Position numbers and translations under genes: made by a program. This document shows, piece by piece, positions 42,547 through 63,091 of a stretch of 64,000 nt of DNA. Numbering within the stretch: position 1 is the first letter of the stretch; each line of letters opens with the position of its first letter. Source of the DNA: an uncultured Marinilabiliaceae bacterium. GTDB taxonomy: Bacteria; Bacteroidota; Bacteroidia; Bacteroidales; Marinilabiliaceae. The DNA lies in NCBI GenBank assembly GCA_964481855.1, contig CAYZUH010000016.1:2917-66916 (forward strand), read 5' to 3'. Below the pieces are notes generated by a model that made no database searches, was not told the origin of the DNA, and was given only the letters and a program-made list of their open reading frames with translations.

Positions 42547-42663
42547 AGGTGTTTCTGTCTTTATGGTTTGTTTACGCAATATGTCATACGGGCAGGTGTT
42601 TTTTCTCCTAGGGCTCGCGCCCTAGGCCGCCTTATGTCGCCCCGTTGGGGCTGGCGGGGAGAG

Positions 42664-43746
42664 TCAAGGCGCGTCTTGCGAATCTTGCCGATTGAGTTCA
42701 AGGCGGAGAGCCTCAATCTCCTTTTGCTGACGGATGACGTGCAGGGTCAGCTCCTCAATCTTCTGCAGGAGGGCCTTGTTCATCTCGTGCTGCGAATAGC
42801 CGTCGGAGCGGACCTCGGCCTCGGACGGCACATCGGGGAGGTGGCCGTTCTCGCCCACGAATCGCTCCACCTCGTCGAGCGGCATGAGCTCGTAGCCGTC
42901 GGCGAAGACGAAATCGGACCATGAGTTGACGGGGGCGATGGCGTAGTCGGCCGAGAGTACCCCCTTGCGGCAGAAGACGTTATATTTCAGCTTGAGGGGG
43001 TCGCTTATGGCGGCGGCCCCATCGCGGTCGAAGCCCAGGAAGATGTTCTGGCCGTTGCCTATGTAGAGAGCCGTGCCGCTGTTGGCGCCAATCTCCAGCC
43101 CGTGGTTGGTGATTGTCCCCAGCCACGCGGCGGTGCGCCCCTCGTTGGTCCCCACGGAGGTCGTGATGTTGCTCTCGGTCACGGTGAGCGCCCCGCCCCT
43201 CTGCACGAAAGGCAACCGCGACTCGATGTGGCTGCCGGCCACCAGGAACGACGGGTTGTCGTCCGTCCCGCCGCCGCCATTGCCCCACAGGGCAATCCCC
43301 CCATAGGAGTTGAGGCGCAGCCACTTCTGCATCTGGCACGAGAGGATTACGTCGCCCTGCCGGCCGTAGCCGTAGTAGGAATCTATGCTGCCCGAAGCCG
43401 AGAGGTCTGTCATGACATATCGGTAGGCCACGAGCGAGCCGTGCGTCCCCGCCGCGGCGTCGGCAATGGCGTTGAGGTTGCCGTTGACGAAGCCGACGTT
43501 CTGCGACGCCGTGACCGGGTCGGTGGGCTTCCAGAGGAGCCAGCGCCCCTCGCTGTTGACAGCGCCCCGGAACTTGTCGGCTGTCGTGAACTGTATGCCG
43601 GTGAACGGGTAGGCCAGGGCCGAGTTGGCAATCCATTCGGGCTTGCCGGCCTGTCCGCTGCCGCGCCACATGTGGTAGTAGGTCTGGGCGGGGGCGGAGA
43701 GGGAACCAGCGCAAAGGCAAACAGACAAAAAGAATATCCTATTCAT
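42664..43746 (-). CDS. Secreted hypothetical protein with C-terminal coiled coil (tail-fibre-like C-terminal module)
   Basis: Preferred start MNRIFFLSVCLCAGSLSAPAQ at 43746; an ATG alternative lies at 43782. The C-terminus reads WSDFVFADGYELMPLDEVERFVGENGHLPDVPSEAEV...EMNKALLQKIEELTLHVIRQQKEIEALRLEL. I know this motif from Bacteroidota surface/tail-fibre-like hypothetical proteins; no family is assigned. Confidence 0.5.
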   Translation of the reverse strand: MNRIFFLSVCLCAGSLSAPAQTYYHMWRGSGQAGKPEWIANSALAYPFTGIQFTTADKFRGAVNSEGRWLLWKPTDPVTASQNVGFVNGNLNAIADAAAGTHGSLVAYRYVMTDLSASGSIDSYYGYGRQGDVILSCQMQKWLRLNSYGGIALWGNGGGGTDDNPSFLVAGSHIESRLPFVQRGGALTVTESNITTSVGTNEGRTAAWLGTITNHGLEIGANSGTALYIGNGQNIFLGFDRDGAAAISDPLKLKYNVFCRKGVLSADYAIAPVNSWSDFVFADGYELMPLDEVERFVGENGHLPDVPSEAEVRSDGYSQHEMNKALLQKIEELTLHVIRQQKEIEALRLELNRQDSQDAP

Positions 43747-43771
43747 AACTGAAAATATAATGCGCAACGTT

Positions 43772-46197: not shown

Positions 46198-46338
46198 CGC
46201 CACACTTCATTTTCCGACCCAAAAAACAGGAGATGGGACGCCCACCGCACCCCAAAGACGGCGGGCAACCAAAATTGGCGTAAGATGGGCGTCCGCATCT
46301 CCACACACTCACTTAACAAGCATCACACACTCAGCAAT

Positions 46339-48054
46339 TTAGTAGCCATTGTTCTGACTTATGTAGGGATTGGACTCTATCTCGGTTATGGGAATCGGGA
46401 GCCACTCGTTGACGCCCTCCTTGAAACCGAGATAGTACGTGGCGGAAATGACTTTCTTGAAGTTGGGGTCGGAAGCCTCCCTCTGGCGGAACGTCGGGGC
46501 GAGGTCTCCCCAACGCAAGAGGTCGTAGAATCGATGCCCCTCAAGAGCCAATTCGAGCATACGCTCCTTCTTGATGTCTTCCATCGTCGGATTTGGAATC
46601 TGAGCCATGTTCGCCCTGTCGCGAACCTGGTTGAAAGCCGCAGCCGCCGTCAAGCCTCCCCCCTGGGCGCCCCCATTCAGCACGGCCTCGGCGTACATCA
46701 GCAAGACGTCTGCATAGCGGATGTAGCGGAAGTTGACTCCATGGGCTCGCGGCTGGTTGTATATCATCTCGCGCACCCCGCCGCCAGTGCCGCCCCAGTT
46801 CGTCGGACTGTCGCCCCTCATGGGCAACGACAAGTCGAGATGTTTGAGGAACGCGGCCTTGTAGGGGTGCGTGAGCGGATTGACTGTCGTGCCGTCCACA
46901 GTGCAGTTGAAGCTCCCCGATGGGTAAATCTCGGTGAACTTATAGCCCCCCGGCCCTGTCGGCTCCGGCCGTCCCCCCAGCTTGATTTCTGAGTTCGTCG
47001 CGTTGAAGAAGATGGTGCTGAACATCCGCAAGTCCGTATTGCCATCTTTGTCGATTGAAGTTGCGAAAGCATCATACAGCCAATCGTGGACGACTCCCTC
47101 GTAGGCGGGACCCGCGCCGGGCAACATGAACCCACGGGAGTCGAGCGCCAGCCCAGAAGTGGCGGTGCCGGGGTTGAACCCATTGTTCTCGGCATCGCCA
47201 AGGAACTGAATCTCGAAGACCGACTCGTCGTTGTTCTCGTGCGCCACGTCGAAGTTGTGCGCATACTCCACAAGACGATACTGCCCATACGTCCCGTTGA
47301 TGACCTCGGCGAACTCCCTGGCCGCCTCCGTGTAGAATGTCGCCTGGTTTGCGCCATAGCGCGGCTCTATGCCGCTCCGCATCAGGTAGGCCTTACCGCG
47401 CAGGGCAGCCGCCGCGCCCGCCGTGACTCGCCCCCGCCTGTCTTCAGTCCAGTAGCCCTTTTTGGGCAGGTTCGCCTTGGCCTGCTCCAGGTCGGACAAG
47501 ATGATGTCCCAGACCTGGTCGGGAGCCGCGGAGGCTCGCACGTAGTCAGACCTGTTGCCCACACTCGTGATTGGCGCCACCTGCCGCCAGTTGGTCAACA
47601 AGAAGTAGTGCGCAAAGGCCCTCCAAAAGAAAGCCTCGCCACGGTATGCTCTCTTGAGCTCGGCATCGTCGAAATGCACGGCGTCTATGTTGTCGATGAT
47701 ATACGTAGCCTGCCCCGCGACGGAATAGAGCATCGTATAGGGCTGCTCAATGACGTAGTGGCTGCTGTTGAGGTCCGCGCCATACATCCCGGGCATGGCG
47801 TAGTCGGACCTCGACGCCGCCTCGTCGCTCCGGAAGACGACCCAGTGTGTGGCCATGGCCCCGAAGTTGCGCTGGGTCTGGATGTAGCCATAGCATGTCA
47901 TGAGCGCCTGGTTGACATCCTCCGGCGTGGAGAAGAAGCTGTTCATGCTTATTTGGTTGGGGCTGACCTCCAACTCGTCGAACGTATCGTCGCACCCCGC
48001 CGCCACAAAAGCGATCAGGACTGCCGCCGCCGACATCATATATGTCTTTTTCAT
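46339..48054 (-). CDS. RagB/SusD-family nutrient-binding outer-membrane lipoprotein (module 1)
   Basis: 571 aa with lipobox AAGC. The C-terminal region IKKERMLELALEGHRFYDLLRWG is typical of SusD, and it is adjacent to SusC. Confidence 0.9.
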   Translation of the reverse strand: MKKTYMMSAAAVLIAFVAAGCDDTFDELEVSPNQISMNSFFSTPEDVNQALMTCYGYIQTQRNFGAMATHWVVFRSDEAASRSDYAMPGMYGADLNSSHYVIEQPYTMLYSVAGQATYIIDNIDAVHFDDAELKRAYRGEAFFWRAFAHYFLLTNWRQVAPITSVGNRSDYVRASAAPDQVWDIILSDLEQAKANLPKKGYWTEDRRGRVTAGAAAALRGKAYLMRSGIEPRYGANQATFYTEAAREFAEVINGTYGQYRLVEYAHNFDVAHENNDESVFEIQFLGDAENNGFNPGTATSGLALDSRGFMLPGAGPAYEGVVHDWLYDAFATSIDKDGNTDLRMFSTIFFNATNSEIKLGGRPEPTGPGGYKFTEIYPSGSFNCTVDGTTVNPLTHPYKAAFLKHLDLSLPMRGDSPTNWGGTGGGVREMIYNQPRAHGVNFRYIRYADVLLMYAEAVLNGGAQGGGLTAAAAFNQVRDRANMAQIPNPTMEDIKKERMLELALEGHRFYDLLRWGDLAPTFRQREASDPNFKKVISATYYLGFKEGVNEWLPIPITEIESNPYISQNNGY

Positions 48055-48067: not shown

Positions 48068-51000
48068 TTAGAAAGAGAGGTTGAGACCGAAAGTGAACGT
48101 CCGCGTGTTGGGATAGGCGTTGCGGTCTATCCCGCGCTCCAGGAGCGTGCTGGAGCTGACCTCGGGGTCGAAGCCCGAATAGCCGGTGATTGTCAAGAGG
48201 TTCTGCGCAGAGGCGTAGAAGCGCAAACGGTCTATCCCGGCGCGGTCGGTCAACGACTTAGGCAGCGTATAGCCTATTTGCAACGTTTTGAGACGCAAAT
48301 AAGACCCATCCTCGACATAGAACTCGCTCGGCCAGGAGTTCCCGCCGGTCAGGTTGTCGGTCTTGGCAATAGGGATGCCGGAGTTGGTGTTTGTGGGCGT
48401 CCATGCGTTGAGGGCGTCCTTGACCATGTTGTTATTGTGGTTGAAATACCAATCGTATTTCTTGAGGTTGAAAATGTCGTTGCCCCCAACCCCATTGAAG
48501 AAGAGCGTCAAGTCGAAGTCGCGCCACCCGACATCGACGTTGATGCCGTACGTCACTTTGGGGATGGGGTTGCCAATGACCACCTTGTCGTCGGCCGTGC
48601 GCTCGCCGTCGTTGTTGGTGTCGCTAAAGATGAAGTCGCCATTGGCGTCGATGCCGTCAATCTTGTAGCCATAGAAAGAGCCTATGGCGTATCCCGGCAT
48701 TGCGATTGCCGGACGGTCGTTGAAAGAACTCGACATCATCTCCGAGGTCAGGTTCTGCACATTGGCCCCCAGAGCCAGAACCTTGTTGCTCAACGTTGTG
48801 GCATTGGCCGACACAGACAACTGGAACTCGTCCGTGAAGCTCTTCTTCCACGAAAGCATGAACTCCCACCCCTTGTTCTCGACCGACGCCGAGTTGATGT
48901 AGGGCGTCTCCCTTGTGCTGTTGATCTCGAAGACCTGTCCCGACGACGGATTGAGCTGAATCCGCGTCAGCAGGTCCTCGTTCTTTTTCTTGAAATAGGA
49001 GACGTGGAACGTCAGCTCGTTGCGCATGAAGCCCAAATCGAGCCCCACGTCGGTTGTCTTAGACGTCTCCCACTTCAGGTCTTGCGTCTTCATGTATACG
49101 GCTCGCGCGTCGACAAACCGTTTGCCACCCGTGGTGTAGGGCAACGGGCCGAAAGCGATATTGTCGAAATTGTATGGCGAAAGGAAATTGGCTCCCAGCT
49201 CACCATATGAGCCGGTAATCTTCAGCTGGCTTATGGGCCCGCCCTCCATGAATGCCTCCTCGTGGACATTCCACCCGACCGAAGCGGCGGGGAAGTAGCC
49301 CACGCGGTGCGCCTCGGCGAACTTCGACGACTCGTCGCGACGCAGAGACGCCGAGAGCAGGTAGCGATTGTCGAAATCGTAGTTGACGCGGCCGAAGAAG
49401 CTCAGAAGGGCGGCATTCTCCTCGCCGCTAGTCGTCTTGGTGTCCAGGTTGTTGACCGCCACAATGTTCGCGGCCCCAAGGTCGTCGATGGTCGTATACT
49501 CTTGCGACCTCGAATATTCGCGCATCCAGCTGTGGCCAATGGTGAGAGCCACGCCGTTGAGGCCAAAAGAACGCTCGAAGTTGAAAACATTGTCCCAAGT
49601 GATGTTGCCCGTCACCCCGCGGCTCTCCGAAAGACTGTTGCGCGTGTTGCCGTAGCTCGGATCGGGGGCGCCGTTGCCGAACCACCGGGTGTAGTAGATT
49701 GGCGTATGCGTATAGCCGTGGCTGCCGGAATAGTTGCCCCCAAAGGAGGTGGAGAACCGCAATCCCTCGACGATGTCAATCCCGACACTCGCCCCGCCAA
49801 TCATGTCGAACCAGTTGGTCCACTGGTCTGTATTGTAGATTGCGCCAAAAGGGTTCTGCCGACGCTCCTCGGCGGCCTCAATGTAGTATTGACTTCCCCA
49901 CGACGTGAAGCGCCCCTGGCTGTCGCGCACCGGCAGGGTCGGCATCCCGATGTTGAACGACGCCGTCGGGCGACGCTTGCGGTAGGAGAGCTGCATGTTC
50001 TCCGAGACCGACAGCCGGCCGAACTTCCACGACGAGTTGGCTCGCGCAGTGATTTTCTCAAAATCGCTCTTCACGATGACGCCCTTTTGCTTCATGTAAC
50101 TTGCCGAGAAAGAGTAGTTGCCGACATCGTTGCCGCTAGAGACCGACGCGTCGGCGTTGAAAATCGGGGCGCGCCGGGTGTACTCGTCGACCCAGTCCGT
50201 ATCGACACCAGGGTCTGACGGCGATACATTCTCGGCGGCGCGGGTCAGCCCGCTGTTGTCGCTCACCATGTTGGCGTAGCGGCGCCACTCTTCCGCGTTC
50301 ATGAAGTCGGGGACGTTTGCCAGCTTCTGGAGGCTGTATGAGAAGTTCACATTGACCTTCGGCTCTCCCTTTTGCCCGCTTTTGGTGGTGATGATGACAA
50401 CCCCGTTTGCGGCACGCGAGCCGTAGATCGCGGCCGCGGCCCCATCTTTGAGAACCTGGATTGACTCGATGTCCGACGGGTTGAGCGTCGTAAGCCCGTT
50501 GTTGCTGAACACCCCGTCGATGACGTAGAGCGGCGACGTCGCGGTGAGCGACGCGGCGCCTCGGACAAGAATCGTCACGTCGGCACCGGCAATGCCGCCT
50601 TGCTGAAGAATGTCGACACCCGCGGCGCGCCCCTGGAGGGCAGACGCCACATTGTGGGAAATCTGCTTCGCGACCTCGCCAGGGGCGACGACGGCGACAG
50701 AAGAAGACATCTTGCTACGGCTCATGGTTCCATATCCCACCACCACCACGTCGTTGAGCTCCTCGGCGTGGGAGACGAGGTAGATGCTTAGACTCTCTCT
50801 AGATTGCGCGGGGGGGGGGGGGTAAATTCTTGCGTGGCATAGCCAATAAAGGAGAATACGAGGGTCCGCCCCGGCTCTGCCAGCGTGAGGGAGAAGTTGC
50901 CGTCGGCGTCGGTAATCGTCCCGGTCTGCGTCCCCTTGACCAGGACCGAGACGCCGGGGATTGGCTGCCTGTCGGCCGAGTCGAAGACCCGTCCCGCCAC

Positions 51001-51084
51001 CACGCCCTGCGCCGCGGCGGCGAGCGGCGCGAGCAGCAGGGCCACCAGGAGGCAGAGCCTGAGAGCTGAAAACTTCTTGTTCAT
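48068..51084 (-). CDS. SusC/RagA-family TonB-dependent transporter (module 1), reading frame broken at a C13 tract
   Basis: The 5' ORF runs from ATG 51084: MNKKFSALRLCLLVALLLAPLAAAAQG plus a CarboxypepD_reg-like domain ...SFIGYATQEF. It stops 7 codons after the poly-C tract. The 893-aa ORF (48068-50749) continues in another frame with ...IYLVSHAEELNDVVVVGYG, a plug and a barrel. 14 or 11 C would give one 1005-aa protein. Confidence 0.85.
50810..50822. repeat. Homopolymer G13 (C13 on the coding strand) inside susC of module 1
   Basis: Counted directly: g at 50810, ten g at 50811-50820, two g at 50821-50822. It encodes the Pro run in ...QEFTPPPP. Confidence 0.95.
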
Positions 51085-51273
51085 ACGTTTTTCTTGTTTT
51101 GCGTTAAACATTCGGCGAATAGGGTGCGGCCGGGGGGGAGGGAGGTCTCTACATTGCGCCCCCCCCATCCCGGCCGAGGGGGAGGCGGCCACATTGCGTC
51201 AATGTTTTCTCCATCTACAGTCTTTAGCTAAACAGGCTGTGGTTGCGCGACGGTTTACTTAATTCGTCGAGTG

Positions 51274-51305
51274 CAAATATGCGCCATTAGGAAATTCAGA
51301 CCAAA
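51274..51305 (-). promoter_or_regulatory. Candidate Bacteroidetes promoter TTTG-N20-CATATTTG for susC (module 1)
   Basis: The minus strand reads aaaaTTTGgtctgaatttcctaatggcgCAtaTTTGcac. The spacing fits the -33 TTTG / -7 TAnnTTTG consensus, with C for T at box position 1. This implies a leader of about 180 nt. Confidence 0.45.
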
Positions 51306-51443
51306 TTTTGCGAGCAATATTTTATTATTAAGTTGAATTAATTATTCTTTTTGTCTTTTGCATGAATTTCGCCCCCCGGTTTTGGAGCTGAGGAGCCAAG
51401 GATAAGGCGCAGGGCGGCGGCGCACCCGGCGGGTGCGGAAAAC

Positions 51444-51478
51444 GCCCCAAGTTGCACCCGGCGGGTGCAACTTGGGGC
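51444..51478 (-). terminator. Strong hairpin (16-bp perfect stem, 3-nt loop), probable terminator of the upstream module
   Basis: gccccaagttgcaccc-ggc-gggtgcaacttggggc, followed on the minus strand by GTTTTCC. It lies 87 nt downstream of the stop at 51565. A second copy of the core palindrome gcacccggcgggtgc lies at 51422-51436. Confidence 0.55.
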
Positions 51479-51564
51479 TAAGACAAGATTGAGGAGGCCA
51501 GGAGACTCCGCCCATGCGCCATCCGCCCCGACAGGACTAGACAAGCACAGATAGTGCCCCAAAA

Positions 51565-54036
51565 CTATATGTCCCAAAAGTCACTATCTCCCTTTGGCAA
51601 AACATCCGCCACCTCGACATGGGATATTGTGCCGAGGAAGCGTTGAGAACACTTCTCGTCTCTCGCGCCGACTGAAATTTTGTCCATCCCTGGCACAAAC
51701 CCCGAGAAGCCGACATAGGCAAAAGCCCTCGCATTGGCCCTATCGGACGGAGTGACCTGCCCTTGCTGATGCTTCCACTGCCACAGGATGGCCTGTTGCT
51801 CGACCGCCTCGAAAGAAATCGACGGGCAGGACACCCGAAGCGTCACCACATCCTCCTCCGCCGCCTTGCCGTACTTCCTTGCCGACGTCTTCAAGGCCTC
51901 GACCGTCACCACCGTCTCCTTGCCAGCAAAGGTCCGCCCCTTGGGTGGAGATATTGCCACCCGGGCAAATTCCTGCCCATGCATCATGATGCGATATGAA
52001 AACGCGCCATCCGCCTCATAGCAGAGGCTAATGTTGTTGGCGTCGTCTCCATGGAACCTCAAAAGCGTCTGCACGCCTGTCGAAGCCTGGGGCGTGGAGG
52101 AAACAGCGACCGTCCCCCGAAGCGCGCTGGTCGGGACGAACAGATTCGGGCGGCGCAGCATGCCGGCGAAACTTATCGTCTTGCACGGATTCCGCGGTTC
52201 GGCGGGCGAGTAGGCCCAATAATGCCCGGATCTCGCGGCAGAGGCATTCTCGGTCTTTATGATTTTCCCCGTATGAGGCCCCCTCTCCACCATAAACCCA
52301 TAGAACGTGGCATTCTTCACTTTGGCAGACATCACGACGGGTATGTTCGTCATATCATCTTTCACAGATATGACCTTCGTGGGGTTCTTGTCCGAGAAAT
52401 CTTTCAAAAACTTGAAGAGGAGATTCTTATCGCACATGTCCACACCATCCACAACCGTCACAGACTCATATTGGTCGGAAGGTGTCGCAGTCCCTTCGGC
52501 ACTGCTTCCCATCGCGCCGGCCAAAGGCATTCCGAGGCCGTGCTCCTTTGTCGGGTCGTAGCTGTATAGAGACACGCTGACATAGCTGTCGAGCTGAGAG
52601 GTCTGCCGCCCCCTGGGGTCTTGCGTCACGTCGGCAAGAATCTGTGGCGCATAGCGCACATCGACACCGAGCGCCGCATAGAGCGAAAACGCGGCTAGAG
52701 TCTCGCCCTTCGCATCCGCCGAGTAGAACGTCTTCATGCCACCATTGGCCGCCAGCCCGGCCCACTTGCCATACTTTCCGACAGCCAACGATATGCCCGA
52801 ATTCCTATCTGAAACGTGGAGCTGGCGCGACGCGGCGTAGAAGTATAGCAAGTCGTAGGGATTGGCGGAATACCTCCCCGCCAGGATGGGCTTCGCCACG
52901 TTTATGCAACCGTGGTCGTCGCCATGCGGGTCCTCACCGTTGTCGATGAACGGAGTCCCGGGCTTGACGTAATACCAATCTGAAGCATTGTTGGAGAACG
53001 CCAACTCGGTCCGCTGCCTGTTGGCCACCGTCTCGTCGGCCCTGGTGCCAAATGCAGTCACCAGTCCCCACCAAACGTCGTCCTCAAACCCGTCTAGGCG
53101 AAAGGGTTGCATACTGTATGGCTCCCATTGGCGGGTAGACATATCGAGCGCCACGTCGATGTCGTAATTGCCGGACTCCAACCGCTCGCCAAGCTCTGTG
53201 ACCGTCTCGCGCCGGTATCGCATTCGGGGGTCGGGCGAGGGGAAAGGCAACCTTTCGCCCGGGAGCAAAGACGAGCGTTTCGCGTTGATGCGAGACACGA
53301 CATAGTATTTGCCGCCCTGCTTGAGGTAATTCATATGGGTGTCGGCATTTATGAAGCGGAACAGGTATTCATGCTGCGTCCGCACGCGGTCGGTTTTCAT
53401 ATCGGCAAAGCCGCTCAACACACCAAGGGGGGTAAAGTCCCGCCTCATCTCATAGCCCGCGATCAGATGGTTCTCCTTTTCGCGTTGGGGGAGGTATACC
53501 AACTTTATGGGCTTCTCGCCACCCGCATCAGTATCGTCAAAGATTCCGAGACTCTCGATGTCCACCGCGACAATGTTCGACGCCTGGCAACCTCCGCAAG
53601 GCGCGGGTGAAATCTTGTCGTCGGCACTCCGTCCGTGCGGATTGTACCAGTAAAGCCCGGCCTCCGGCCTTGTCCATTCTGCCAGACTGCTCGAATTGTT
53701 TGTATAGACGAATGCCCCAACCTTGGAGAAAGGGACGTCGGAATGGACAAGGAAACAGGACAAGTAGAGCGACAGATTGCCTTTGTTGTCCCTCAACACA
53801 TTGGGCATTCCATTCTCCAACTTGGCCTCCCAGGGATACGTCTTGGGATTGGGGCTGATTATGTTCCGCCCGCCATCGTACTTATCGGGCTGACGCACAT
53901 ACACATCGTCGGAGGCATATTGGAACAGGGCGGGATTAACGGCCGAAAATTTCTGCGGCTGTTGCGCCTCAGACATTCCCGGCGAGACAAGGTAGGCGCA
54001 AACCATCAAGACGCCCCTCCCTACACTAGCCCTCAT
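51565..54036 (-). CDS. Secreted hypothetical protein: beta-propeller-like N-terminal region plus C-terminal LamG/concanavalin-like domain, family unassigned
   Basis: 823 aa with a signal peptide. The central region ELAFSNNASDWYYVKPGTPFIDNG...LLYFYAASRQ resembles the propeller paralogs. The C-terminal LRFHGDDANNISLCY...ARAFAYVGFSGFVPGMDKISVGAR...RFLGTISHVEVAD is LamG-like. Its ATG overlaps the stop of gene D (ATGA). Confidence 0.6.
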   Translation of the reverse strand: MRASVGRGVLMVCAYLVSPGMSEAQQPQKFSAVNPALFQYASDDVYVRQPDKYDGGRNIISPNPKTYPWEAKLENGMPNVLRDNKGNLSLYLSCFLVHSDVPFSKVGAFVYTNNSSSLAEWTRPEAGLYWYNPHGRSADDKISPAPCGGCQASNIVAVDIESLGIFDDTDAGGEKPIKLVYLPQREKENHLIAGYEMRRDFTPLGVLSGFADMKTDRVRTQHEYLFRFINADTHMNYLKQGGKYYVVSRINAKRSSLLPGERLPFPSPDPRMRYRRETVTELGERLESGNYDIDVALDMSTRQWEPYSMQPFRLDGFEDDVWWGLVTAFGTRADETVANRQRTELAFSNNASDWYYVKPGTPFIDNGEDPHGDDHGCINVAKPILAGRYSANPYDLLYFYAASRQLHVSDRNSGISLAVGKYGKWAGLAANGGMKTFYSADAKGETLAAFSLYAALGVDVRYAPQILADVTQDPRGRQTSQLDSYVSVSLYSYDPTKEHGLGMPLAGAMGSSAEGTATPSDQYESVTVVDGVDMCDKNLLFKFLKDFSDKNPTKVISVKDDMTNIPVVMSAKVKNATFYGFMVERGPHTGKIIKTENASAARSGHYWAYSPAEPRNPCKTISFAGMLRRPNLFVPTSALRGTVAVSSTPQASTGVQTLLRFHGDDANNISLCYEADGAFSYRIMMHGQEFARVAISPPKGRTFAGKETVVTVEALKTSARKYGKAAEEDVVTLRVSCPSISFEAVEQQAILWQWKHQQGQVTPSDRANARAFAYVGFSGFVPGMDKISVGARDEKCSQRFLGTISHVEVADVLPKGDSDFWDI

Positions 54037-55739
54037 GCTCCCCCTGTTGGCACGTCCAACCCCGTCTCGCTAAGCCCAGGCCCGCCCCCGGCCGTGTAGC
54101 CTCGGCTCTCGCCTGAGGCCCACGGTGAGACCCAGAAAGAGTAGAGGTCGCCGTCTGTAAGGTAGAATCGGAAAGCGACACCCTCCCCGCGAAGAGACGA
54201 CAAGTCCTTACGTGTCTCCCATTCTATCCTCGCCTTGGTAGAATCGCCCATGAAGGGGCGGCAGTCGTCCTTGCCAAACCCGGGGATGGGCTCGCCGTCG
54301 GCGTCTAGGACCTCGACGAGCAGGCTCCCCCTCGCCTCCGCGTTCACAAACAGATGGTCGCCGTCGAACCGCACAACCTCGGTCTGCAAATACGCGCCCC
54401 CGCTCCCCTCAGACGCCCTCATCGAGACAAAACCGTCGCGGCGCAGCGTGGCAAGACCGGTAGCCGTCCCCGCATCCCACCACAGCCCGTCGGGATTCCG
54501 CCCCGTGGAGTATATGTACAGCGAATCGCCTACAATCAGAGGGACTCCGTTTATCGACTGCATATTCCCCATGTTCCAAGCCCCCGGCGTCTCGTCCACA
54601 CCCCAAAAAGGCTCATGGCTAGGACGCGAAAAGTGGAAACCGTCTCGGCTGTAGCCCAACATCAGCTCATTGCGTTTGGGAATCATGAGCCCCCTGGCAA
54701 TGTGGTTCTCCGGTCCCTGCCACTGGCTATAGAAGCCGAGAATTATGCTCTCGTAGGCAATGGCATCGAAGTTGTAGATCCCGGGGGCGACATCAGGGTA
54801 TTTTTCGTGCCGCTTCTCCTTGTCGTCGGGGGTGAACCAAAAGACGACGTGCTTGTCGGCTACACCCTCGCGCAGGCGGTGCGCAAGGCTCACGGCCTCT
54901 TCGGGGTCGTCGTGTTCCAGGTAGCTGCGCGACCGCCACGATACCTTGTCGTGATGCCTCATGCTCAGCACCCATTTGTCGGTGAACGGATTATAAAAAG
55001 CCGTCGAACGGTCGGCAATGGCGCCCGACTGCGCCACGGCGTCGGACCAATGCACTCCGTCCGCGCTGTATTTCAAGACATATTGCCACTGGATGTAGTC
55101 GGGCCTATACTCGACGTTGAAGAACTTGTATCGCTTTGCGGGGTCGGTCTCCCGCTTGTCAAGCCAGACGGTCGAGGCGTCGCGGTTGGCCGTGTCGCAG
55201 ACATTGGTTCCCGGCACGATGCCAAGGTCCGCCTTGACCCATCTCTTGCCGTCGTCCGATTCGGCATAGCACGTATAGAGGCTGTGCTTCTGCCTGCTGA
55301 CCTTGCCGGCCCCCGCCAAATACCACATCTTGAATTTGCCCTCGCGCTCGTCATACCAAATGCCGTCGGAGAACGGCCCGGCGTAGGGGAACCCCTCTGG
55401 CGTCAGCTCCCACTCCCTGTCGGCTTTTAGAATCGGATTCGCCGCATATTGCTTGGGCGAGTTGTAGACGCGTAGCATATTCGTCTCCTTGATGAGATAA
55501 TCGTCGACAAAGAGCTGCCGGCCAACGTTGATGGGGATGACCTGCGGCTTATCCTCCAAATAGGGGACAGGCATCTCCTGCGGCTTCTGCGGCTCGACGT
55601 AGCGCGGAGGCCACTGTCCTGGCAGGCGGATGCCGTTGTGCAGAACCCGCCCCGTCTCATCCGCCGCGTCTCCTTGCGCGCATCCGGCCATGAGGCATGA
55701 CAGGACGACAAGGGCGGCGGGAATTATACTTCTATTCAT
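54033..55739 (-). CDS. Lipoprotein, five-bladed beta-propeller glycoside-hydrolase-like (paralog D)
   Basis: ATG at 55739 gives MNRSIIPAALVVLSCLMAGC; the track start at 55784 is GTG. Contains NGIRLPGQWPP, VGRQLFVDDYLI, NPILKADREWE, PFSDGIWYDEREGKFKMWY, GYSRDGFHF, LRRDGFVSM and LYSFWVSPWASGESRGYTAGGGPGLSETG. Confidence 0.6.
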   Translation of the reverse strand: MNRSIIPAALVVLSCLMAGCAQGDAADETGRVLHNGIRLPGQWPPRYVEPQKPQEMPVPYLEDKPQVIPINVGRQLFVDDYLIKETNMLRVYNSPKQYAANPILKADREWELTPEGFPYAGPFSDGIWYDEREGKFKMWYLAGAGKVSRQKHSLYTCYAESDDGKRWVKADLGIVPGTNVCDTANRDASTVWLDKRETDPAKRYKFFNVEYRPDYIQWQYVLKYSADGVHWSDAVAQSGAIADRSTAFYNPFTDKWVLSMRHHDKVSWRSRSYLEHDDPEEAVSLAHRLREGVADKHVVFWFTPDDKEKRHEKYPDVAPGIYNFDAIAYESIILGFYSQWQGPENHIARGLMIPKRNELMLGYSRDGFHFSRPSHEPFWGVDETPGAWNMGNMQSINGVPLIVGDSLYIYSTGRNPDGLWWDAGTATGLATLRRDGFVSMRASEGSGGAYLQTEVVRFDGDHLFVNAEARGSLLVEVLDADGEPIPGFGKDDCRPFMGDSTKARIEWETRKDLSSLRGEGVAFRFYLTDGDLYSFWVSPWASGESRGYTAGGGPGLSETGLDVPTGGA

Positions 55740-55799
55740 AATCAACAAATTAGGGCGTTCGGACGTCAGCGGGGACGCTGACACCCGAAAGCCGTCTTC

Positions 55800-57461
55800 T
55801 TAATTCCACCCGGGGTTGTTGGCCGTTATATATGGGTTGCCCTCCACCTCGTCGATGGGAATCGGCAACCACTCGTTCTTTCCCTCTTGGAAGCCGAGGT
55901 ATGCGGAAATGTTGTACTGCTTGAAATTAGGGTCTTCCGCCTCCAACTTCTTGAACCTAGCCGCCAGCTCGCCCCACCGGAGCAAGTCGAAGAAACGGTG
56001 CCCCTCGCCGGTCAACTCTAGAATCCTCTCTTTCTTAATGTCCTCAATATTCACGCTCTGCAAGGCGGGCATATTGACGCTCTTCCTGGCCCTCACCTTG
56101 TTGACCGCCTCCATGGCGGAGAGAGACCGTTGCGTCGCCCCCGACACAACGCATTCGGCATACATGAGGAGGACGTCCGCAAAACGGATATAGGGGTAGT
56201 TGAGCCCGTTGGCTCTCAGGTTTCCGAACCACATGCCGTTGCCCGGATTCTTACTCGGGAGAGTCCAATCCATGCCCTTTCGGCACGCGCTCTTATATTT
56301 GCCGGCTTGCGCATTGACCGCGGCAAAGCCATCATCACCATAGTAATCCGCCCAAGTCATGCCGTCGACGACCGTCACGGCGTCACCCTCCTTGGCATTA
56401 ATCTGGGGGGCCTTGTCGTCGAAAATGAGCGTGCCGAACATACGGCTGTCGGTGTGCCCCTCGGCGTCTTTGCTATCCACAAAAGCCTGCCACACCCAAT
56501 CGTGGCAAACATGCGCATTGTTGTTCGCGAGCCGCGAGGGGGGCTGAGTCCCTCGGGGGTCTCTCCAGACCCCGCTCGTGGTAAGTCCGGGGTTGAAGCC
56601 GGTGTTGACGGCATCGCCCATGAACTGCAGCTCAAAAATCGACTCGTCGTTGTTCTCCGTCGCGACGCAAAAAAGGTCGCCATATTCATCCACGATGCGG
56701 TAGTCCCCGTGCCTCCCGCTTATCACCTCGTCAAAACATTGGGCCGCCTCGTTGTAGTAGTTCTGCGCCGTACCATATTTTGTCTCGATTCCGGTGCGAT
56801 AGAGATATACTTTCCCGAGCAAAGCCGCCGCGCTGCCACTCGTGACGCGCCCCAGGTCGTCCTCCGTCCAATAGCCTTTTGGCGGCAACAGCTCCTTGGC
56901 CCTCTGGAGGTCGGCGACGATGAAGTCCCAAGCCTCGTCGGGCGACGCTTGCGGGCGATAGTTCTTGGCAGAGGTGGGGAACTCGCTCATCAGCGGGATA
57001 TTGCGCCAATTGACCAGGAGGAAGAAATGCGAGAAAGCCCGGAGGAAATAGGCCTCGCCAAGATAGGCGTTCTTCAACTGCGCGTCTTCCATGTCCACGC
57101 CGGGGATGCACTCAATCATTTGGCACGCTTGCGAGGCGGCCGTGTAGAAAAGCTGGAACGGTTGCACTAGAGTGTACCACGACGTGGTCAGAGCCGTGCA
57201 ATACTGCCCCGGCACCCCATAGTCCGTACGGTCGCTCTCTTCGTCGCCCCTGTTGACGAGCAGACGGATTCCCGCCGCCCCCATGGCGCGGGGCGTGGTC
57301 ACGTAGGAGTAAATCCCCAAGACGCCCTGATTGAGCGTCTTCTGTGATGTATAGAACTGCGCGACGTCCATCTGGTTCGGATTGACCGCAAGGTCGTCAA
57401 AAACATCTTGGCAAGACGCCATCGACAGCGTGGCCGCGACGGCCGCGAAAATTCTTTTCAT
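55800..57461 (-). CDS. RagB/SusD-family nutrient-binding outer-membrane lipoprotein (module 2)
   Basis: 553 aa with lipobox MASC. IKKERILELTGEGHRFFDLLRWG. Roughly 45-50% identical by eye to the module 1 SusD. Confidence 0.9.
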   Translation of the reverse strand: MKRIFAAVAATLSMASCQDVFDDLAVNPNQMDVAQFYTSQKTLNQGVLGIYSYVTTPRAMGAAGIRLLVNRGDEESDRTDYGVPGQYCTALTTSWYTLVQPFQLFYTAASQACQMIECIPGVDMEDAQLKNAYLGEAYFLRAFSHFFLLVNWRNIPLMSEFPTSAKNYRPQASPDEAWDFIVADLQRAKELLPPKGYWTEDDLGRVTSGSAAALLGKVYLYRTGIETKYGTAQNYYNEAAQCFDEVISGRHGDYRIVDEYGDLFCVATENNDESIFELQFMGDAVNTGFNPGLTTSGVWRDPRGTQPPSRLANNNAHVCHDWVWQAFVDSKDAEGHTDSRMFGTLIFDDKAPQINAKEGDAVTVVDGMTWADYYGDDGFAAVNAQAGKYKSACRKGMDWTLPSKNPGNGMWFGNLRANGLNYPYIRFADVLLMYAECVVSGATQRSLSAMEAVNKVRARKSVNMPALQSVNIEDIKKERILELTGEGHRFFDLLRWGELAARFKKLEAEDPNFKQYNISAYLGFQEGKNEWLPIPIDEVEGNPYITANNPGWN

Positions 57462-57474
57462 GACGATATAGAAA

Positions 57475-60400
57475 CTATAGTTTCACACTGAGCCCGACAT
57501 TGAAAGTCCGGCTGTTTACTGTTGGGGCGTAGTTCTGGAGTCCGTCCAGGCCACGGTCGAAAAGCGTGTTGCTGCTCACTTCGGGGTCGTAGAGCGAGTA
57601 GTCCGTCAGCGTGAAAAGATTGGTGACCCCGACGTAGAGACGCGCGGACTGCACAAACCCCATTTGAGGGAACGAGTAGCCTAGCTGCAGGTTCTTGCAA
57701 CGGAAGTAGGAGCCATCCTCGACATAGAAAGAACTCGGAAGCGCATTGCCACCATTGCGGTTGTCGGTTTTTGCTATGGGAAGGGCCGCGGAACTGTTGG
57801 AGGCCGTCCAGGAGCCGCTCATGGCATCGCGCAACGTGTTGGTGTTGTAGTCGAAATAGAGGAAATACTTTCCCGCCGCAAAGATGTCGTTTCCGTGCGT
57901 CCCCTGGAAAAAGGCCGTCAAGTCCCAACTCTTCCACCCAAGGTTGACGTTGATGCCATAAGTGAAATCGGGAATGGGGTTGCCAATCACCTGCTTGTCG
58001 TCATCGGAGACCTCGCCCGGGGCTTTTGCCAATCCGTCCGCCCCCAGGAACATGAAGTCGCCAGTCTCGGGATTCACACCCATCACCTTGTAGCCCCAAA
58101 ACGAGCCAATGGGCAACCCCGCCATGGTGATGGACGGACGGTCGTTGAACTTGTCACTGAGCATATTGCCGCGGATGGGCTGGACCCCATCGCCAAGAGC
58201 CTTGACCTCATTGTCCAAGAAAGAGATGTTGCCGCTGAGGTCAACAGACCAGTCAGACCACGCGCGACGATAGCCGACGGTGAACTCCCACCCCTTGTTT
58301 TCGACAGACGCCGTGTTGTAGTACGGGACGTCGCCGTCGTTGATGATGATGGTCTGCCCCGACGACGGCAGCGGCTCCAGCGGGGCCAGCAAGTCCCGAT
58401 TCTCTTTCGAGAACCATTCGACCTCGAAAGTGAGCGAATTGTCTATGAAGCCGAACTCCACGCCGACGTTCTTAGACACGGCGGTCTCCCACGTGAGGTC
58501 TGGCTGCGCCAGGCGCGTGACGTAGCCGTTCTGACGGCTCCCTCCCCCGCTTCCAAAAATTGTGGGAACGGGGCCGTAGGCAAGATTGAGGAACGAATAG
58601 GGGTCTATGAAATTGGCGCCCATCTCCCCGTAGCTGGCGCGAACCTTTAGCCTCTGCATCCACGACAGGTTGAAAAAGCTCTCATTGTGCAAATTCCACC
58701 CCACACTGACGGACGGGAACCACCCGACACGGTAGCCCGACGCGAACTTTGAGCTCTTGTCGCTACGGATGCTGGCAGAGAGCAGGTACCGGCTCTTGAA
58801 AGCATAGTTCAGGCGGCCGAGGAAAGAGAACAGGGCGGCATTATTCTCCGCGGAGGTTATGGGCCCCTCGCCGTTGAAAGTGTTCACTGCGGCAGAACCG
58901 AGGTCGGCAACGCCCGAGCCGATTGCCATTGTCCGGTGAAACTCCCTCATCCAGCTCGTCCCGACAAGCACGTCGAACTCATGCCCGGCAAAATCGCCAT
59001 TGAATGTCAGCAGATTGTCTATCGTATAGTCGAACTCCTCGCCCCGGCTTTCGGACAGGCTCGTATAAGGCTGCGAAAAGCGGGAGTCCGGCGTCCCCCC
59101 GGCGTCCCAATAGGAGGCGTATTCGGGAGTGTGCGTATAGCCGTGGCTGTTCAGATAGCTCCCCGCCAAATTGAGCTTATATTTAAGCCCGGCAACCAGG
59201 TCGACAACGAGCCCCGCGCTGCCAACAATGTCGGTCTTGCGCGTCCATGCGTCGCGGTTGTAGATTAAAGCCAACGGGTTGGTGATGTCCGTTTTTAGGA
59301 GCGAATAGTCAAGCTCTTGGGGGGTGGATACATATCGCCCTCGGCTGTCTCTGACGGGAATGGTCGGTATTTGCCCAATGCGCCCTTGCGCAGACACCTC
59401 CTTCTTCTTGGTGTGAGCCAAAGACACGTTCTCAGAAATGTGGAACCTGCCGATGTCGAACGTGCTGTTGATTCTGGCATTATACTTCTCGTAGTCCGTC
59501 TCGATTACGATACCCTCCTGCTTGGTGTAGCCAAGACTGGCACTGAAAGTGTTGCTCTGCCCCCCTCCCGAAAGGCTCGCGTTGAGGCTCCACATTGGCG
59601 CCCCGCGGTAGTACAAGTCCTGCCAGTCTTGACTGTAGCCGGGGTTGGTCGGCGATACATTCTGCTCCGCACGCTCATAGCTGGGGCTGTTGTCCGCCAC
59701 CATGTTTGCGAACTGGCGCCACTCATCGGCGTTCATGAAATCCAGCTTCTTGGAGATTTTCTGCCACGACCAATTGCCGCTGACCTCCACATTGGTGCGC
59801 CCGCTCTTTCCGCTCTTGGTAGTGACCAAGACCACCCCGTTTGCGGCACGCGACCCATATATTGCGGCGGCCGAGCCGTCTTTCAGAATCTCGATGGAGG
59901 CGATGTCGTTTGGGTTGACTGAGTTCAACCCATTGAGGCCGACGGCCCCGTCGATGATGTAGAGCGGCTCGGTGCTGCCAAACGACCCGGCACCGCGAAC
60001 AACTATGCTAATATCGCCGCCGGCTTCCGCCCCGTTTTGTAAAACCTCAACACCGGGAGCGCGCCCCTGAAGAGCGGAGGCTACATTCGACGTCACCGTC
60101 TTCTGAATCTCCTCGGTTGGAACGGTAACGACAGAAGCCGTGACACTCGACTTTTTCTGCACGCCATATCCCACCACCACCACGTCGTTGAGCTCCTCGG
60201 CGTGGGAGACGAGGTAGATGCTTAGACTCTCTCTAGATTGCGCGGGGGGGGGGGGGTAAATTCTTGCGTGGCATAGCCAATAAAGGAGAATACGAGGGTC
60301 CGCCCCGGCTCTGCCAGCGTGAGGGAGAAGTTGCCGTCGGCGTCGGTAATCGTCCCGGTCTGCGTCCCCTTGACCAGGACCGAGACGCCGGGGATTGGCT

Positions 60401-60518
60401 GCCTGTCGGCCGAGTCGAAGACCCGTCCCGCCACCACGCCCTGCGCCGCGGCGGCGAGCGGCGCGAGCAGCAGGGCCACCAGGAGGCAGAGCCTGAGAGC
60501 TGAAAACTTCTTGTTCAT
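57475..60518 (-). CDS. SusC/RagA-family TonB-dependent transporter (module 2), reading frame broken at an identical C13 tract
   Basis: Same 5' cassette as module 1 (identical 134-aa track ORF at 60222-60626, real ATG at 60518). The 902-aa ORF (57475-60183) continues in another frame. 14 or 11 C would give a 1014-aa protein. Confidence 0.85.
60244..60256. repeat. Homopolymer G13 (C13 on the coding strand) inside susC of module 2
   Basis: Counted directly: 60244-60250 is seven g and 60251-60256 is six g. Confidence 0.95.
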
Positions 60519-60707
60519 ACGTTTTTCTTGTTTTGCGTTAAACATTCGGCGAATAGGGTGCGGCCGGGGGGGAGGGAGGTCTCTACATTGCGCCCCCCCC
60601 ATCCCGGCCGAGGGGGAGGCGGCCACATTGCGTCAATGTTTTCTCCATCTACAGTCTTTAGCTAAACAGGCTGTGGTTGCGCGACGGTTTACTTAATTCG
60701 TCGAGTG

Positions 60708-60739
60708 CAAATATGCGCCATTAGGAAATTCAGACCAAA
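60708..60739 (-). promoter_or_regulatory. Candidate promoter TTTG-N20-CATATTTG for susC (module 2), twin of 51274-51305
   Basis: Identical sequence within repeat copy 2. Confidence 0.45.
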
Positions 60740-60877
60740 TTTTGCGAGCAATATTTTATTATTAAGTTGAATTAATTATTCTTTTTGTCTTTTGCATGAA
60801 TTTCGCCCCCCGGTTTTGGAGCTGAGGAGCCAAGGATAAGGCGCAGGGCGGCGGCGCACCCGGCGGGTGCGGAAAAC

Positions 60878-60912
60878 GCCCCAAGTTGCACCCGGCGGGT
60901 GCAACTTGGGGC
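60878..60912 (-). other. Twin of the 16-bp-stem hairpin, here with no co-directional upstream gene to terminate
   Basis: Identical sequence within repeat copy 2. The core palindrome twin lies at 60856-60870. Confidence 0.5.
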
Positions 60913-60939
60913 TAACTTAGGCGTGAAAAGACAAGAGCA

Positions 60940-61650
60940 ATGACGGACATACGCCTCGTAAACTATATGCGCAGCCTGGTGAACGCCAACGGGATGAGCT
61001 TCCACAGGTACGCATACGACGACATAGACTGGAACCTCCGAATTTCGGCCTCGTAGGCCCCCGCGGCGGCGGCAAGACTACCCTCCTACTGCAGCGCGCC
61101 AAAGAACTTGCGGCACAGATAGGCGACGGATGGGCAAACAGAGTCTTATGCCTAGTCGGTCGACAACATATATTATCTCAGGCAAAAGCCTGGTGGAGCA
61201 GACGGACGAGTTTGTCCGCAACGGCGGTGCGCACCTCTTCATCGACGAGGTGCACAAGATATGCCAATTGGTCGAGGGAGCTGAAGCAGATATACGACAC
61301 CCACCCGGACTTGCACGCGGCGTTCACCGGCTCGTCGGTGCTGGACATCCGCATGGGCGAGGCGGACCTGAGCCGTCGTGCGCCAATATACACCATGCAA
61401 GGACTCTCGTTCCGCGAATACTTGACCTGTTTCACGGCATAGAGACCCGCCCACTGACGTTGGAAGAGATTTTGACCACAAGCCCGACGATAGACGCCCT
61501 GCCCCACCCGCTTCCGCTCTTCAAGGACTATTTGGCTCGCGGCTACTACCCATTCGCCACCGACAGCCAATTCGAGACGGAGCTCTTGCAAGTGGTGTCG
61601 CAAACCTTGGAAGTTGACATTCCCCAATTTGTGGGGATGAACGCTTTCAC
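60940..61650 (+). pseudogene. Decayed AAA_14/DUF4143-type ATPase gene (at least 4 frameshifts, 3' truncated)
   Basis: Family-typical segments occur in three different frames: MTDIRLVNYMRSL..DIDWNLRIS / GLVGPRGGGKTTLLLQRAKEL (Walker A) / LVEQTDEFVRNGGAHLFIDEVHK (Walker B) / WSRELKQIYDTHPDLHAAFTGSSVLDI...LSRRAPIYTMQGLSFREYL / LTLEEIL...FKDYLARGYYPF...QTLEVDIPQFVGMN. Homology stops about 170 aa short of the intact paralog at 19585-20760. Confidence 0.7.
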
Positions 61651-61656
61651 AAGGCG

Positions 61657-62826
61657 CTACCCGCGCGCCCGCCGCCCCGAGAGCCACCGCCGGACGGGGA
61701 CGTCGTAGAGACGCAGTGCGAGCCACGCCAGGACGAGGCTGGCGGCGACGACGGCCGCCGACTGCCACAGGGCGCCGGCGAGAGAATACGTCCCCGACCG
61801 GACAAGACAGGCGTAGAAGAGGTAGAAGAGCGGGTAGTGGACTATGTAGAGCGGGTAGGAGATGTCGCCAAGGAGACGGTAGAGGGCCGAGCGGCGCGCG
61901 CCGGCGGGACGCTCGGACGCCCCGAGCCACAGGAGGACGGGGAAGACCGCCACGATGCACACGGCCTCGAAGACGCCGTTCCAATTGACGCCCCCCGACC
62001 GCGGCAGGCAGGGGACGGCGAACAGCGCCGCCATGACCACCGACGCCAACACGAACGCCCCGCGGGCCCTGACGGGGCGGAAACGCCTGGCGAGAAGCAT
62101 CCCCAAAGTGTAGGGGAAGAGCATCCGCACGAGGCCGCACCAGAAGTTGAGCCCGTCGAGGGTCCAGCCTACGCCGAACATCCCCATCCGCGCCACGTCG
62201 CCCACGGCCATCCAGACAAGCACGACGCCAAGCAGCGACGCCACGACGGCAAGAACCCGGGTCGGCAACCGTCGGACAATCAAGGCGTAGGCCACGTTGC
62301 CAACATATTCGAAGAAGAGCGACCACGCCGGCCCGTTGAGCGGGAACATCTCGCCATTGCCGCGCACCTCGGCGGGCGAGCCGGGCAGGGCGGGAATCAT
62401 CAGCATCGTGGCCAAGAGGGCGAGCATGACCCACGAGAGGGGGACACCGGAGCCGTCCCACCTGGCGCCGCCCTGGGCGAGAAAGGCCGCCACGCCCACC
62501 ACGGCGGCGAAGACCACCATGGGGTGGAGCCTGACGAGGCGGCGGCGGAAGAAACCGCCCAGGGCGAGGCCGCGCCCCCACCGGGAGTCGTAGGCGTAGC
62601 TGATGACGAAGCCCGAGAGCAGGAAGAAGAAGTCCACGGCGAGATAGCCGTGGTTGAGGACGCCGATGACGCCGTCGCCGACACCGTTGACAGCCTCGGC
62701 AAAGGCGAAGCCCTCGAAGACATGGTGGAAGACCACCAACAGGGCCGCCACGCCCCGCAATCCGTCGAGAGCCTCGTAGTGCGGACGGGTGTCGGCAAAA
62801 AATGAGCTATGTCCTAGCGTTGTCAT
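61657..62826 (-). CDS. Acyltransferase family 3 (OafA-like) integral membrane protein
   Basis: Start trimmed to MTTLGHSSFFADTRPHYEALDGLRGVAALLVVFHHV. About 10 TM helices, with the typical acyl_transf_3 N-terminal motif. Confidence 0.8.
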   Translation of the reverse strand: MTTLGHSSFFADTRPHYEALDGLRGVAALLVVFHHVFEGFAFAEAVNGVGDGVIGVLNHGYLAVDFFFLLSGFVISYAYDSRWGRGLALGGFFRRRLVRLHPMVVFAAVVGVAAFLAQGGARWDGSGVPLSWVMLALLATMLMIPALPGSPAEVRGNGEMFPLNGPAWSLFFEYVGNVAYALIVRRLPTRVLAVVASLLGVVLVWMAVGDVARMGMFGVGWTLDGLNFWCGLVRMLFPYTLGMLLARRFRPVRARGAFVLASVVMAALFAVPCLPRSGGVNWNGVFEAVCIVAVFPVLLWLGASERPAGARRSALYRLLGDISYPLYIVHYPLFYLFYACLVRSGTYSLAGALWQSAAVVAASLVLAWLALRLYDVPVRRWLSGRRARG

Positions 62827-63091
62827 TTGAGACAAAGTTATATAAATGCGCAACAACACAAAACCATCCCCGCGACAAAACTTTTCAGCCCTACAGCTTG
62901 CCAATCAAAATCATTTGGCTACTTTCGCCATAGAAAGGGTAGACGGCGCCGCGCCGGTGATGGCGGCGGCGCGCGTCGGTTGGACGTAGACGGATAGCGC
63001 ACGATAACAGAAACACAAAAACAGCCCAACGCCGCGGCACTCCGCCTCAGGCGGACTTAGGCCGGTGGGGCGTGGTTCTCACACATATACG

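Follow-up and report, generated by a model that had tools for sequence, protein, structure and literature searches.

How can two SusC-type transporter genes, whose repaired products are only 53% identical overall, begin with the same several hundred nucleotides, letter for letter? This question is raised by a stretch of DNA of 64 kb (hereafter the window) from an uncultured Marinilabiliaceae bacterium (assembly GCA_964481855.1, contig CAYZUH010000016.1, positions 2,917 to 66,916), in which two SusC/SusD modules lie in tandem. The genes of both modules are on the minus strand, and their features are read here 5′ to 3′ on that strand. Each module opens with one copy of a 752-bp cassette: copy 1 (50730..51481) forms the 5′ module of SusC1 in module 1, and copy 2 (60164..60915) that of SusC2 in module 2. 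The explanation that we favour, with a probability of roughly 0.65, is an old tandem duplication whose 5′ end has been homogenised by homologous recombination and which carries, in addition, a simple-repeat phase switch.

The preliminary description of the window had reported these two segments as identical base for base, and it had suggested comparing the window with itself. Direct comparison matches 752 of 752 bases, and the repeat finder run on the window returned the same 752-bp pair. The exact run is not extended by a single matching base at either end. Past the high-coordinate edge, upstream of the genes, ungapped identity is about 25%, i.e., random; past the low-coordinate edge, in the plug region of SusC, it is 40–80%, a level in keeping with homologous coding sequence that has diverged. 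The identity breaks off at GGATATGG, the codons for GYG in a VVVVGYG motif, where it had been said to stop, and the same GYG codon is the point at which module 1 and module 2 part (the 3′ edge of the shared part) in two strain lineages, A and B, defined below. Elsewhere, the modules have no exact match longer than 24 nt in common, or longer than 20 nt if only the SusC bodies are compared.

On the minus strand, the gene order is an acyltransferase gene, cassette copy 2, SusC2, SusD2, a gene for a 583-aa protein, a gene for an 813-aa protein (X813), a spacer, cassette copy 1, SusC1, SusD1 and X807, the paralogue of X813 in module 1. The body of SusC1 is an open reading frame (ORF) at 48068..50749 with a Plug domain (PF07715) and a beta-barrel domain (PF00593), and that of SusC2, identified by translation, lies at 57475..60183; both domains are also present in orthologues of SusC1 and SusC2. 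When the reading frame is repaired (see below), SusC1 extends over 48068-51084 and encodes 1005 aa, in line with in-frame orthologues of 1004–1005 aa in three relatives (L015, L017 and L018), whereas SusC2 extends over 57475-60518 and encodes 1014 aa, with an intact in-frame orthologue in a fourth (L008). SusD1 (46339..48054, minus strand) carries the Pfam domains SusD_RagB and SusD-like_3; SusD2 (55800..57461, minus strand) was likewise recognised by Pfam and is 46.5% identical to SusD1 (BLASTP). Without the shared 118 aa, the identity of the two SusC proteins is estimated at about 47%, so that the range of 45–50% previously judged by eye for SusC bodies and SusD proteins holds. X813 and X807 share about 67% of their nucleotides (blastn). 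Since SusC, SusD and the X813/X807 pair are all paralogous, paralogy spans the whole modules. Both loci present the features of SusC/RagA-type transporters, i.e., Plug and beta-barrel domains, a signal peptide, a CarboxypepD_reg domain and an adjacent SusD gene, with the CarboxypepD_reg domain on the same polypeptide as the SusC body only where a homopolymeric tract in the cassette is in frame (L015, L017, L018 and L008).

Related loci were collected by several routes. The close matches to the N-terminus encoded by the cassette were short N-terminal ORFs only, and their contigs were fetched; exact-protein look-ups retrieved L001, L002 and related short-read contigs. A second DNA-pattern scan of genomes gave a single match, a metagenome-assembled genome (L008) deposited as an uncultured Marinilabiliaceae bacterium. 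The pattern used first on the genome collection excluded lineage B and gave no match, and a scan of JGI metagenomes with a 31-mer conserved in all lineages gave none either. Three lineages are defined by the flanking acyltransferase gene. In lineage A (L015, L017, L018 and the contig obtained both as L007 and as L016), this gene is followed by a 736-nt intergenic stretch, the cassette and module 1; the flanks are 99.4–99.9% identical to the window, and the layout is that of the window minus exactly 9,434 bp. Lineage B, whose identity with the window is about 90%, includes a locus with module 1 only (L005), loci in which module 2 leads directly to a gene for a 371-aa protein (L006, L009 and L010) and loci in which the cassette is followed by module 2 (L008, L011 and L012). 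Lineage C is represented by a module-1-like locus (L014). The direct repeat, with its copies 9.4 kb apart, had been proposed as a substrate for deletion, and the lineage-A relatives do lack module 2 exactly at the cassette.

Eleven related cassettes cluster by strain lineage, as the acyltransferase gene does, and not by the SusC body that follows them. Copy 1 and copy 2 are 100% identical, the window cassette is 89–91% identical to those of lineage B and 85.5% identical to that of lineage C, and within lineage B the cassettes are 95.5–100% identical, whether SusC1 or SusC2 follows. The orthologous module bodies of lineages A and B are 86–93% identical, about as the flanks are; because the bodies have diverged like the flanks, both module types, already joined to the cassette at the same point, predate the A/B split. 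Without homogenisation, the cassettes of the two bodies would then differ at least as much as the lineages do; they do not, which argues for homogenisation. Both copies in the window also carry CGG (Arg) for CAG at 50867/60301, that is, a G at cassette position 615, which is absent from five other lineage-A cassette loci (on four distinct contigs) and from lineages B and C. The copies are thus closer to one another than orthologues from different lineages, the adjacent paralogous sequence is diverged, and one derived site is shared, as is typical of gene conversion. Together with the paralogy of the whole modules, the comparison of orthologous loci, in which the cassettes track the lineage and not the module, bears out the earlier suggestion of an old duplication with gene conversion confined to the 5′ part.

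The junction between the modules bears on the age of the tandem. The spacer from the X813 stop codon to copy 1 (51482..51564, minus strand) is 83 nt long, and its last 20 nt or so (GGCCTCCTCAATCTTGTCT) match the junction between acyltransferase gene and cassette in lineage B. The remainder shows weak similarity to the lineage-B intergenic region (alignment with shuffles, z = 3.8 against L009) and is far more diverged than the cassette. An ancestral segment of about 20 nt within a diverged spacer suggests that the tandem junction is much older than the current sequence of the cassette. Upstream of copy 2 lies the 736-nt stretch (60916-61651, minus strand), which is specific to lineage A, as seen in comparison with L005 and L007. 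The window and L007 differ by 0.1–0.2% in the flanking genes and by 2.7% in a 900-bp patch (61477-60572) that spans from this stretch into the cassette leader, in a background that is about 99.9% identical. Since the window carries the lineage-B state at most cassette sites in the patch, the latter looks like an import on the L007 side.

An alternative that we consider rather unlikely is a young tandem without continuing conversion, in which module 2 and its cassette were recently joined to a module-1 locus, possibly by recombination with DNA of a related strain that had module 2 behind the same cassette; the copies would then be identical only for want of time to diverge. Module-1-only and module-2-only loci exist and, in lineage B, look like alleles between the same flanks; the 752/752 identity and the equal tract lengths of the two copies would fit a very young duplication; and the 900-bp patch (2.7% divergence, against 99.9% identity around it) shows that the locus does receive imported recombination tracts. 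However, module 2 of the window differs from that of lineage B by about 12%, as does the rest of the locus, and is therefore not an import from lineage B. Moreover, the upstream flank of copy 1 matches the ancestral lineage-B junction and not the present lineage-A flank, with a spacer that has itself diverged, and X813 and X807 stand at equivalent positions, which fits the duplication of a whole unit. A donor already possessing the junction of X813, spacer and cassette would still be needed. With one tandem genome, ongoing gene conversion and a recent rearrangement are not strictly separable.

The second component of the explanation that we favour, the phase switch, is a run of 13 cytosines (C13, read as G13 on the plus strand) within the coding sequence of each cassette copy, at 50810..50822 for SusC1 and at 60244..60256 for SusC2. 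Runs of at least 13 identical bases are expected 0.015 times in the window; two are observed, both in the cassettes. In this assembly, C13 puts both SusC genes out of frame: the N-terminal ORF stops at TAA after 98 aa (…TPPPPRNLERV), and the SusC body lies in another frame. The two frames are joined by one additional C (C14) or by the loss of two (C11), one additional C giving the products of 1005 and 1014 aa. In lineage B, five cassettes, each from a different sample (L006, L009, L010, L011 and L012), are 100% identical except for this tract, which is C13, C15, C14, C14 and C14, respectively. For lineage A, a look-up through the 354-aa gene of module 1, which is unbiased with respect to the tract, gave four contigs, three of them in frame with a SusC of 1004–1005 aa (C10 in L015 and L018, C13 in L017) and one with an interrupted tract that is out of frame (L016), so that the lineage-A tracts include C10, C13 and an interrupted C11. 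The tract of L008 is interrupted as well (C10ACC) but in frame, with an intact, full-length SusC2. Among the cluster members of the cassette-encoded N-terminus, tails in all three frames follow the proline run.

The tract is kept as a feature over about 15% sequence divergence, and its length differs between near-identical strains. Some lengths are three apart and preserve the frame. A coding homopolymer that sets the frame, varies in length and occurs both in and out of frame matches what is expected of a simple-sequence-repeat contingency locus, as judged from the sequences. We also considered that the genes might always be out of frame and rely on programmed slippage. This idea, which had arisen because the first relatives were found via short ORFs, is weakened by the three in-frame genes among four in the look-up unbiased for the tract. 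As the tract lies 80–92 nt from copy-specific sequence, ordinary 150-nt reads can assign a length to each copy. Two further anomalies affect module 2 in lineage B: SusC2 of L006 has a second frameshift near residue 225 (about positions 880-917 of L006), and SusD2 of L009 (12663-14320) is called at only 355 aa. Either these are assembly errors or they reflect further inactivation of module 2.

The remaining contents of the cassette were found as first described, namely a hairpin with a 16-bp stem, an AT-rich promoter region, a leader of about 180 nt, a signal peptide and a CarboxypepD_reg domain, all on the minus strand, and it follows from the identity of the copies that both modules have the same promoter region, leader and tract. 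Two hairpins mark the 5′ edge (51421..51478; 60855-60912 in copy 2), as detected by folding and as inverted repeats. The first has a perfect 16-bp stem and a 3-nt loop (51478-51444); the second has a 7-bp stem (51437-51421) in which the apex of the first, GCACCCGCCGGGTGC, is repeated. After them comes GUUUUCC. Their folding energy is −45.9 kcal/mol (z = −6.25). A scan for consensus terminators did not call this structure because its tail has only four U; it is probably the terminator of the upstream gene or an insulator. In an Rfam scan of the cassette, the sole match was of the GC hairpin to a microRNA family, below threshold (26 bits against a gathering score of 71), and was taken as chance.

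A Bacteroides-type promoter-like site lies at 51274..51309 (60708-60743 in copy 2). It consists of TTTG at 51304-51301, within AAAATTTGG (51309-51301) in the AT-rich region, and of CATATTTG (51281-51274), which agrees at seven of eight positions with the Bacteroides −7 promoter consensus, TAnnTTTG. Both elements are kept in the alignment of lineages A and B, and by analogy with the published Bacteroides consensus they may function as a promoter; a sigma-70 promoter scan of the cassette found none. The start codon is an ATG at 51084, which would give a leader of about 183 nt if the promoter-like site is used, with transcription then predicted to begin near 51267 (near 60701 in copy 2). Within the leader, a G8 run (51159-51166; 60593-60600 in copy 2) and a C7 run (51132-51138; 60566-60572) could form a hairpin (51127..51176; 60561-60610), found as a fold and as an inverted repeat, whose folding energy is no better than that of shuffled sequence (z = −1.3). 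Both run lengths are strain-dependent, with G8 or G6 and C7 or C6. A further complementary partner of the G run is the coding C13 tract, 336 nt downstream, so that long-range pairing between them, or a second tunable element, is conceivable. A motif, CGCAAT(G/C)TAGAGA, stands directly after both the leader G8 (51146-51158) and the coding C13 (50796-50808), with the copy-2 positions 9434 higher; it is kept in lineages A and B, is absent from the coding site in lineage C, and its recurrence may be due to chance. The 98-aa N-terminal ORF (50788..51084; 60222-60518 in copy 2), identified by translation, comprises the signal peptide and the CarboxypepD_reg domain, the latter detected (PF13715/PF13620) on a product identical to it (P0001). 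Exact look-ups of this ORF and of an 823-aa ORF found neither on record.

We propose that the 752-bp repeat would serve as a common 5′ expression-and-switch module for two ancient paralogous SusC/SusD modules in tandem, each copy being probably insulated from upstream transcription by its hairpin. The cassette would be the sole stretch with enough exact sequence between the modules for RecA-type homologous recombination. Given that matches elsewhere do not exceed 24 nt, recombination would start and resolve inside the cassette, which would produce sharp and stable edges without a site-specific enzyme. The copies would be repeatedly homogenised by gene conversion (concerted evolution), a crossover between them would remove module 2 and leave a module-1-only locus, and between strains the cassette could act as a 5′ homology arm for swapping the transporter body behind it. 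Independently of recombination, slippage would change the length of the C tract of each copy, so that the SusC body would enter or leave the frame of the signal peptide and the N-terminal domain. We infer the recombination mechanism, the order of events (tandem first, deletions later), the use of the promoter and the effect on expression. More tentatively, and with considerable doubt, the cassette might be a portable 'expression and switch' module with which a population keeps, drops, duplicates and exchanges SusC/SusD modules, a counterpart without recombinase of the shufflons known from polysaccharide utilisation loci (PULs), maintained by phage or nutrient selection.

Several points weigh against the proposal of an old, homogenised tandem with a phase switch. 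Only one contig, the window, holds both copies, so that concerted evolution is deduced from single-copy relatives and one derived site; short-read contigs break at the repeat, and the genome and metagenome scans yielded no second tandem contig. The tract lengths come from short-read assemblies, which may miscount long homopolymers, and the SusC2 gene of L006, in frame at the tract, has the second frameshift downstream. The lineage-B form with module 2 only cannot, from its sequence, be derived from the tandem by a simple crossover in the cassette: in these loci, 38 nt separate X813 from the 371-aa gene, and the 5′ end of this gene does not resemble that of its counterpart in the window (L006 9282-9362 compared with window 43729-44151). 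In addition, the cassette allele of the window differs at 5–6 positions from that of every sampled module-1-only strain, which means that none of these strains is a very recent derivative of this exact strain. Finally, and as the main caveat, if the contig came from a graph assembler, one edge could have been used twice, in which case the base-perfect identity and the equal C13 tracts would be built in and a few real differences between the copies would be hidden.

This last point leads to a further alternative, an assembly artefact, in which differing copies were collapsed or a wrong path was taken, the chromosome in the latter case having module 1 only and module 2 being located elsewhere, amplified or circular. 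An exact repeat of 752 bp exceeds typical short-read inserts, so that the pairings of entries and exits are indistinguishable without spanning reads, and module-1-only chromosomes occur in samples with accessions near those of module-2 samples (SRR17221339 compared with SRR17221343 and SRR17221322). The strain of the window is carried by samples SRR17221343, SRR19576314, SRR17221322 and SRR19576310. Nevertheless, L001 and L002, two short-read contigs that stem from other samples, are 99.99–100% identical to the interval from 51444/51452 to 60193, and both contain the junction of X813, spacer and cassette that is unique to the tandem. These contigs end 30 nt into copy 2 and, in copy 1, after 38 nt (L001) and 30 nt (L002), and L004 has an end 30 nt inside copy 1. 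Breaks 30–38 nt into the cassette are those of a true repeat as met by a de Bruijn graph assembler with k = 31, and they are expected if at least the terminal k-mers are exactly shared (L001-L004), although they are no proof of identical interiors. Each of the four junction types has been recovered in independent assemblies, the cassette has the same edge on single-copy lineage-B contigs carrying either body, and a 9.4-kb circle lacking replication genes would not attain the coverage needed for assembly. From the independent contigs that break at the cassette, we conclude that the tandem arrangement is real, and an artefact of assembly appears quite unlikely as an explanation of the locus.

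The acyltransferase gene upstream of copy 2 (61657-62904, minus strand) encodes an Acyl_transf_3 protein (PF01757). The 736-nt stretch between them was considered as the remnant of a third module and was discarded, since it has no significant similarity to X813 or X807 (blastn and tblastx). The 583-aa gene of module 2 (54033-55784, minus strand) is a paralogue of three genes at 37618-42579, which follow one another in module 1 after X807 and a gene for a 354–372-aa protein. Like X813 (51565-54006, minus strand) and the other genes downstream of SusD, these have no match in Pfam, NCBIfam or PDB, even at relaxed thresholds; the set without matches comprises the 813/807-aa pair, the 354-aa gene (42664-43728) and four paralogues of about 580 aa, three of which are arranged in tandem. 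These proteins are probably uncharacterised glycan-processing proteins. Members of the X813 family occur widely in Bacteroidales, some of them with a sorting domain of the type IX secretion system. X807 (44152-46203) is shortened to about 681–683 aa in the window, L004 and L021 and has 807 aa in module-1-only strains. The shortening is likely due to a 2-nt indel at 44263-44264, and may mean that a redundant copy is decaying in the tandem strain. A third SusC/SusD pair (32190-36542, plus strand) converges on the module-1 genes; its SusC (32190-34907) was examined as another user of the cassette and rejected, as it has neither the N-terminal CarboxypepD_reg domain nor the homopolymer tract. The rest of the window consists of housekeeping genes.

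Common 5′ ends of SusC genes are known from other Bacteroidales. In Bacteroides thetaiotaomicron, BT1040, BT1042 and BT1046 share a single complete susC 5′ end, which the tyrosine recombinase BT1041 transfers between them, using a 7-bp core with imperfect direct repeats on either side (10.1101/521070). This PUL shufflon, like similar SusC/SusD shufflons in B. fragilis, resembles the present locus in that several SusC/SusD modules use a common 5′ end with promoter and N-terminal domain and, as would be the case here, in that the transporter made varies within the population, with phage pressure proposed there as the driver. It differs by its locus-encoded tyrosine recombinase and its single mobile 5′ end, the other susC genes being 5′-truncated, whereas here each module has a complete copy and variation would depend on tract length and homologous recombination. 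That a tyrosine recombinase encoded elsewhere cuts at the edges of the cassette and moves or excises modules is very unlikely, despite this precedent and a 3′ edge that is here equally sharp and kept in two lineages, because no recombinase or integrase family was found on the ORFs tested across the window, neither SusC gene lacks part of its 5′ end, and the two share 752 bp without a mismatch instead of a short core, with edges explained by the lack of homology beyond them.

On/off variation of SusC/SusD is also known from the invertible promoters of B. fragilis, where an invertase acts between inverted repeats (Nakayama-Imaohji 2009, as cited in PMC11868660), and invertase-type phase variation is the only type named for Bacteroides in that review. 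In the cassette, no inverted repeats enclose the promoter-like site, the only candidates being the hairpins and a 15-nt pair with 80% matches that does not enclose the −7 element, and no invertase was found in the window. In mechanism, the closest systems appear, by analogy, to be the babA/babB genes of Helicobacter pylori and, in Neisseria and Haemophilus, the TonB-dependent receptors that are switched by repeats. The babA, babB and babC genes have near-identical 5′ segments and diverged bodies and undergo RecA-dependent gene conversion, and a CT repeat switches their frame. The likeness would thus extend to the shared 5′ segment, the diverged bodies, conversion and a coding repeat switch at the 5′ end; the bab genes differ in being at dispersed loci, in their dinucleotide repeat, in encoding adhesins and not TonB-dependent transporters, and in having no operons behind the shared part. 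Among TonB-dependent receptors, hpuA and hmbR of Neisseria vary in phase through poly-G tracts and the hgp genes of Haemophilus through CCAA repeats. There too, a hypermutable coding repeat shifts the frame of a TonB-dependent outer-membrane transporter, but in another phylum, for the haem/iron class and without a duplicated, homogenised 5′ cassette. A literature search in a limited collection found nothing on SusC with phase variation by homopolymeric tracts, nor on gene conversion in PULs.

Glycan-uptake loci largely set what gut Bacteroidales eat, and their SusC proteins are exposed at the cell surface. In Bacteroidales, phase variation as described to date relies on invertases and shufflons. 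The locus analysed here suggests a second route without a dedicated enzyme, in which a homogenised 5′ block governs the gain, loss and exchange of modules and a C tract toggles the transporters. Loci of this kind break up short-read assemblies, and their SusC genes are annotated as split or as pseudogenes, so that such loci are likely under-counted. If the proposal is correct, a tandem strain with its own poly-C switch in each copy could show four surface and transport states, and SusC transporters in Bacteroidota would have their first described case of phase variation by a simple repeat.

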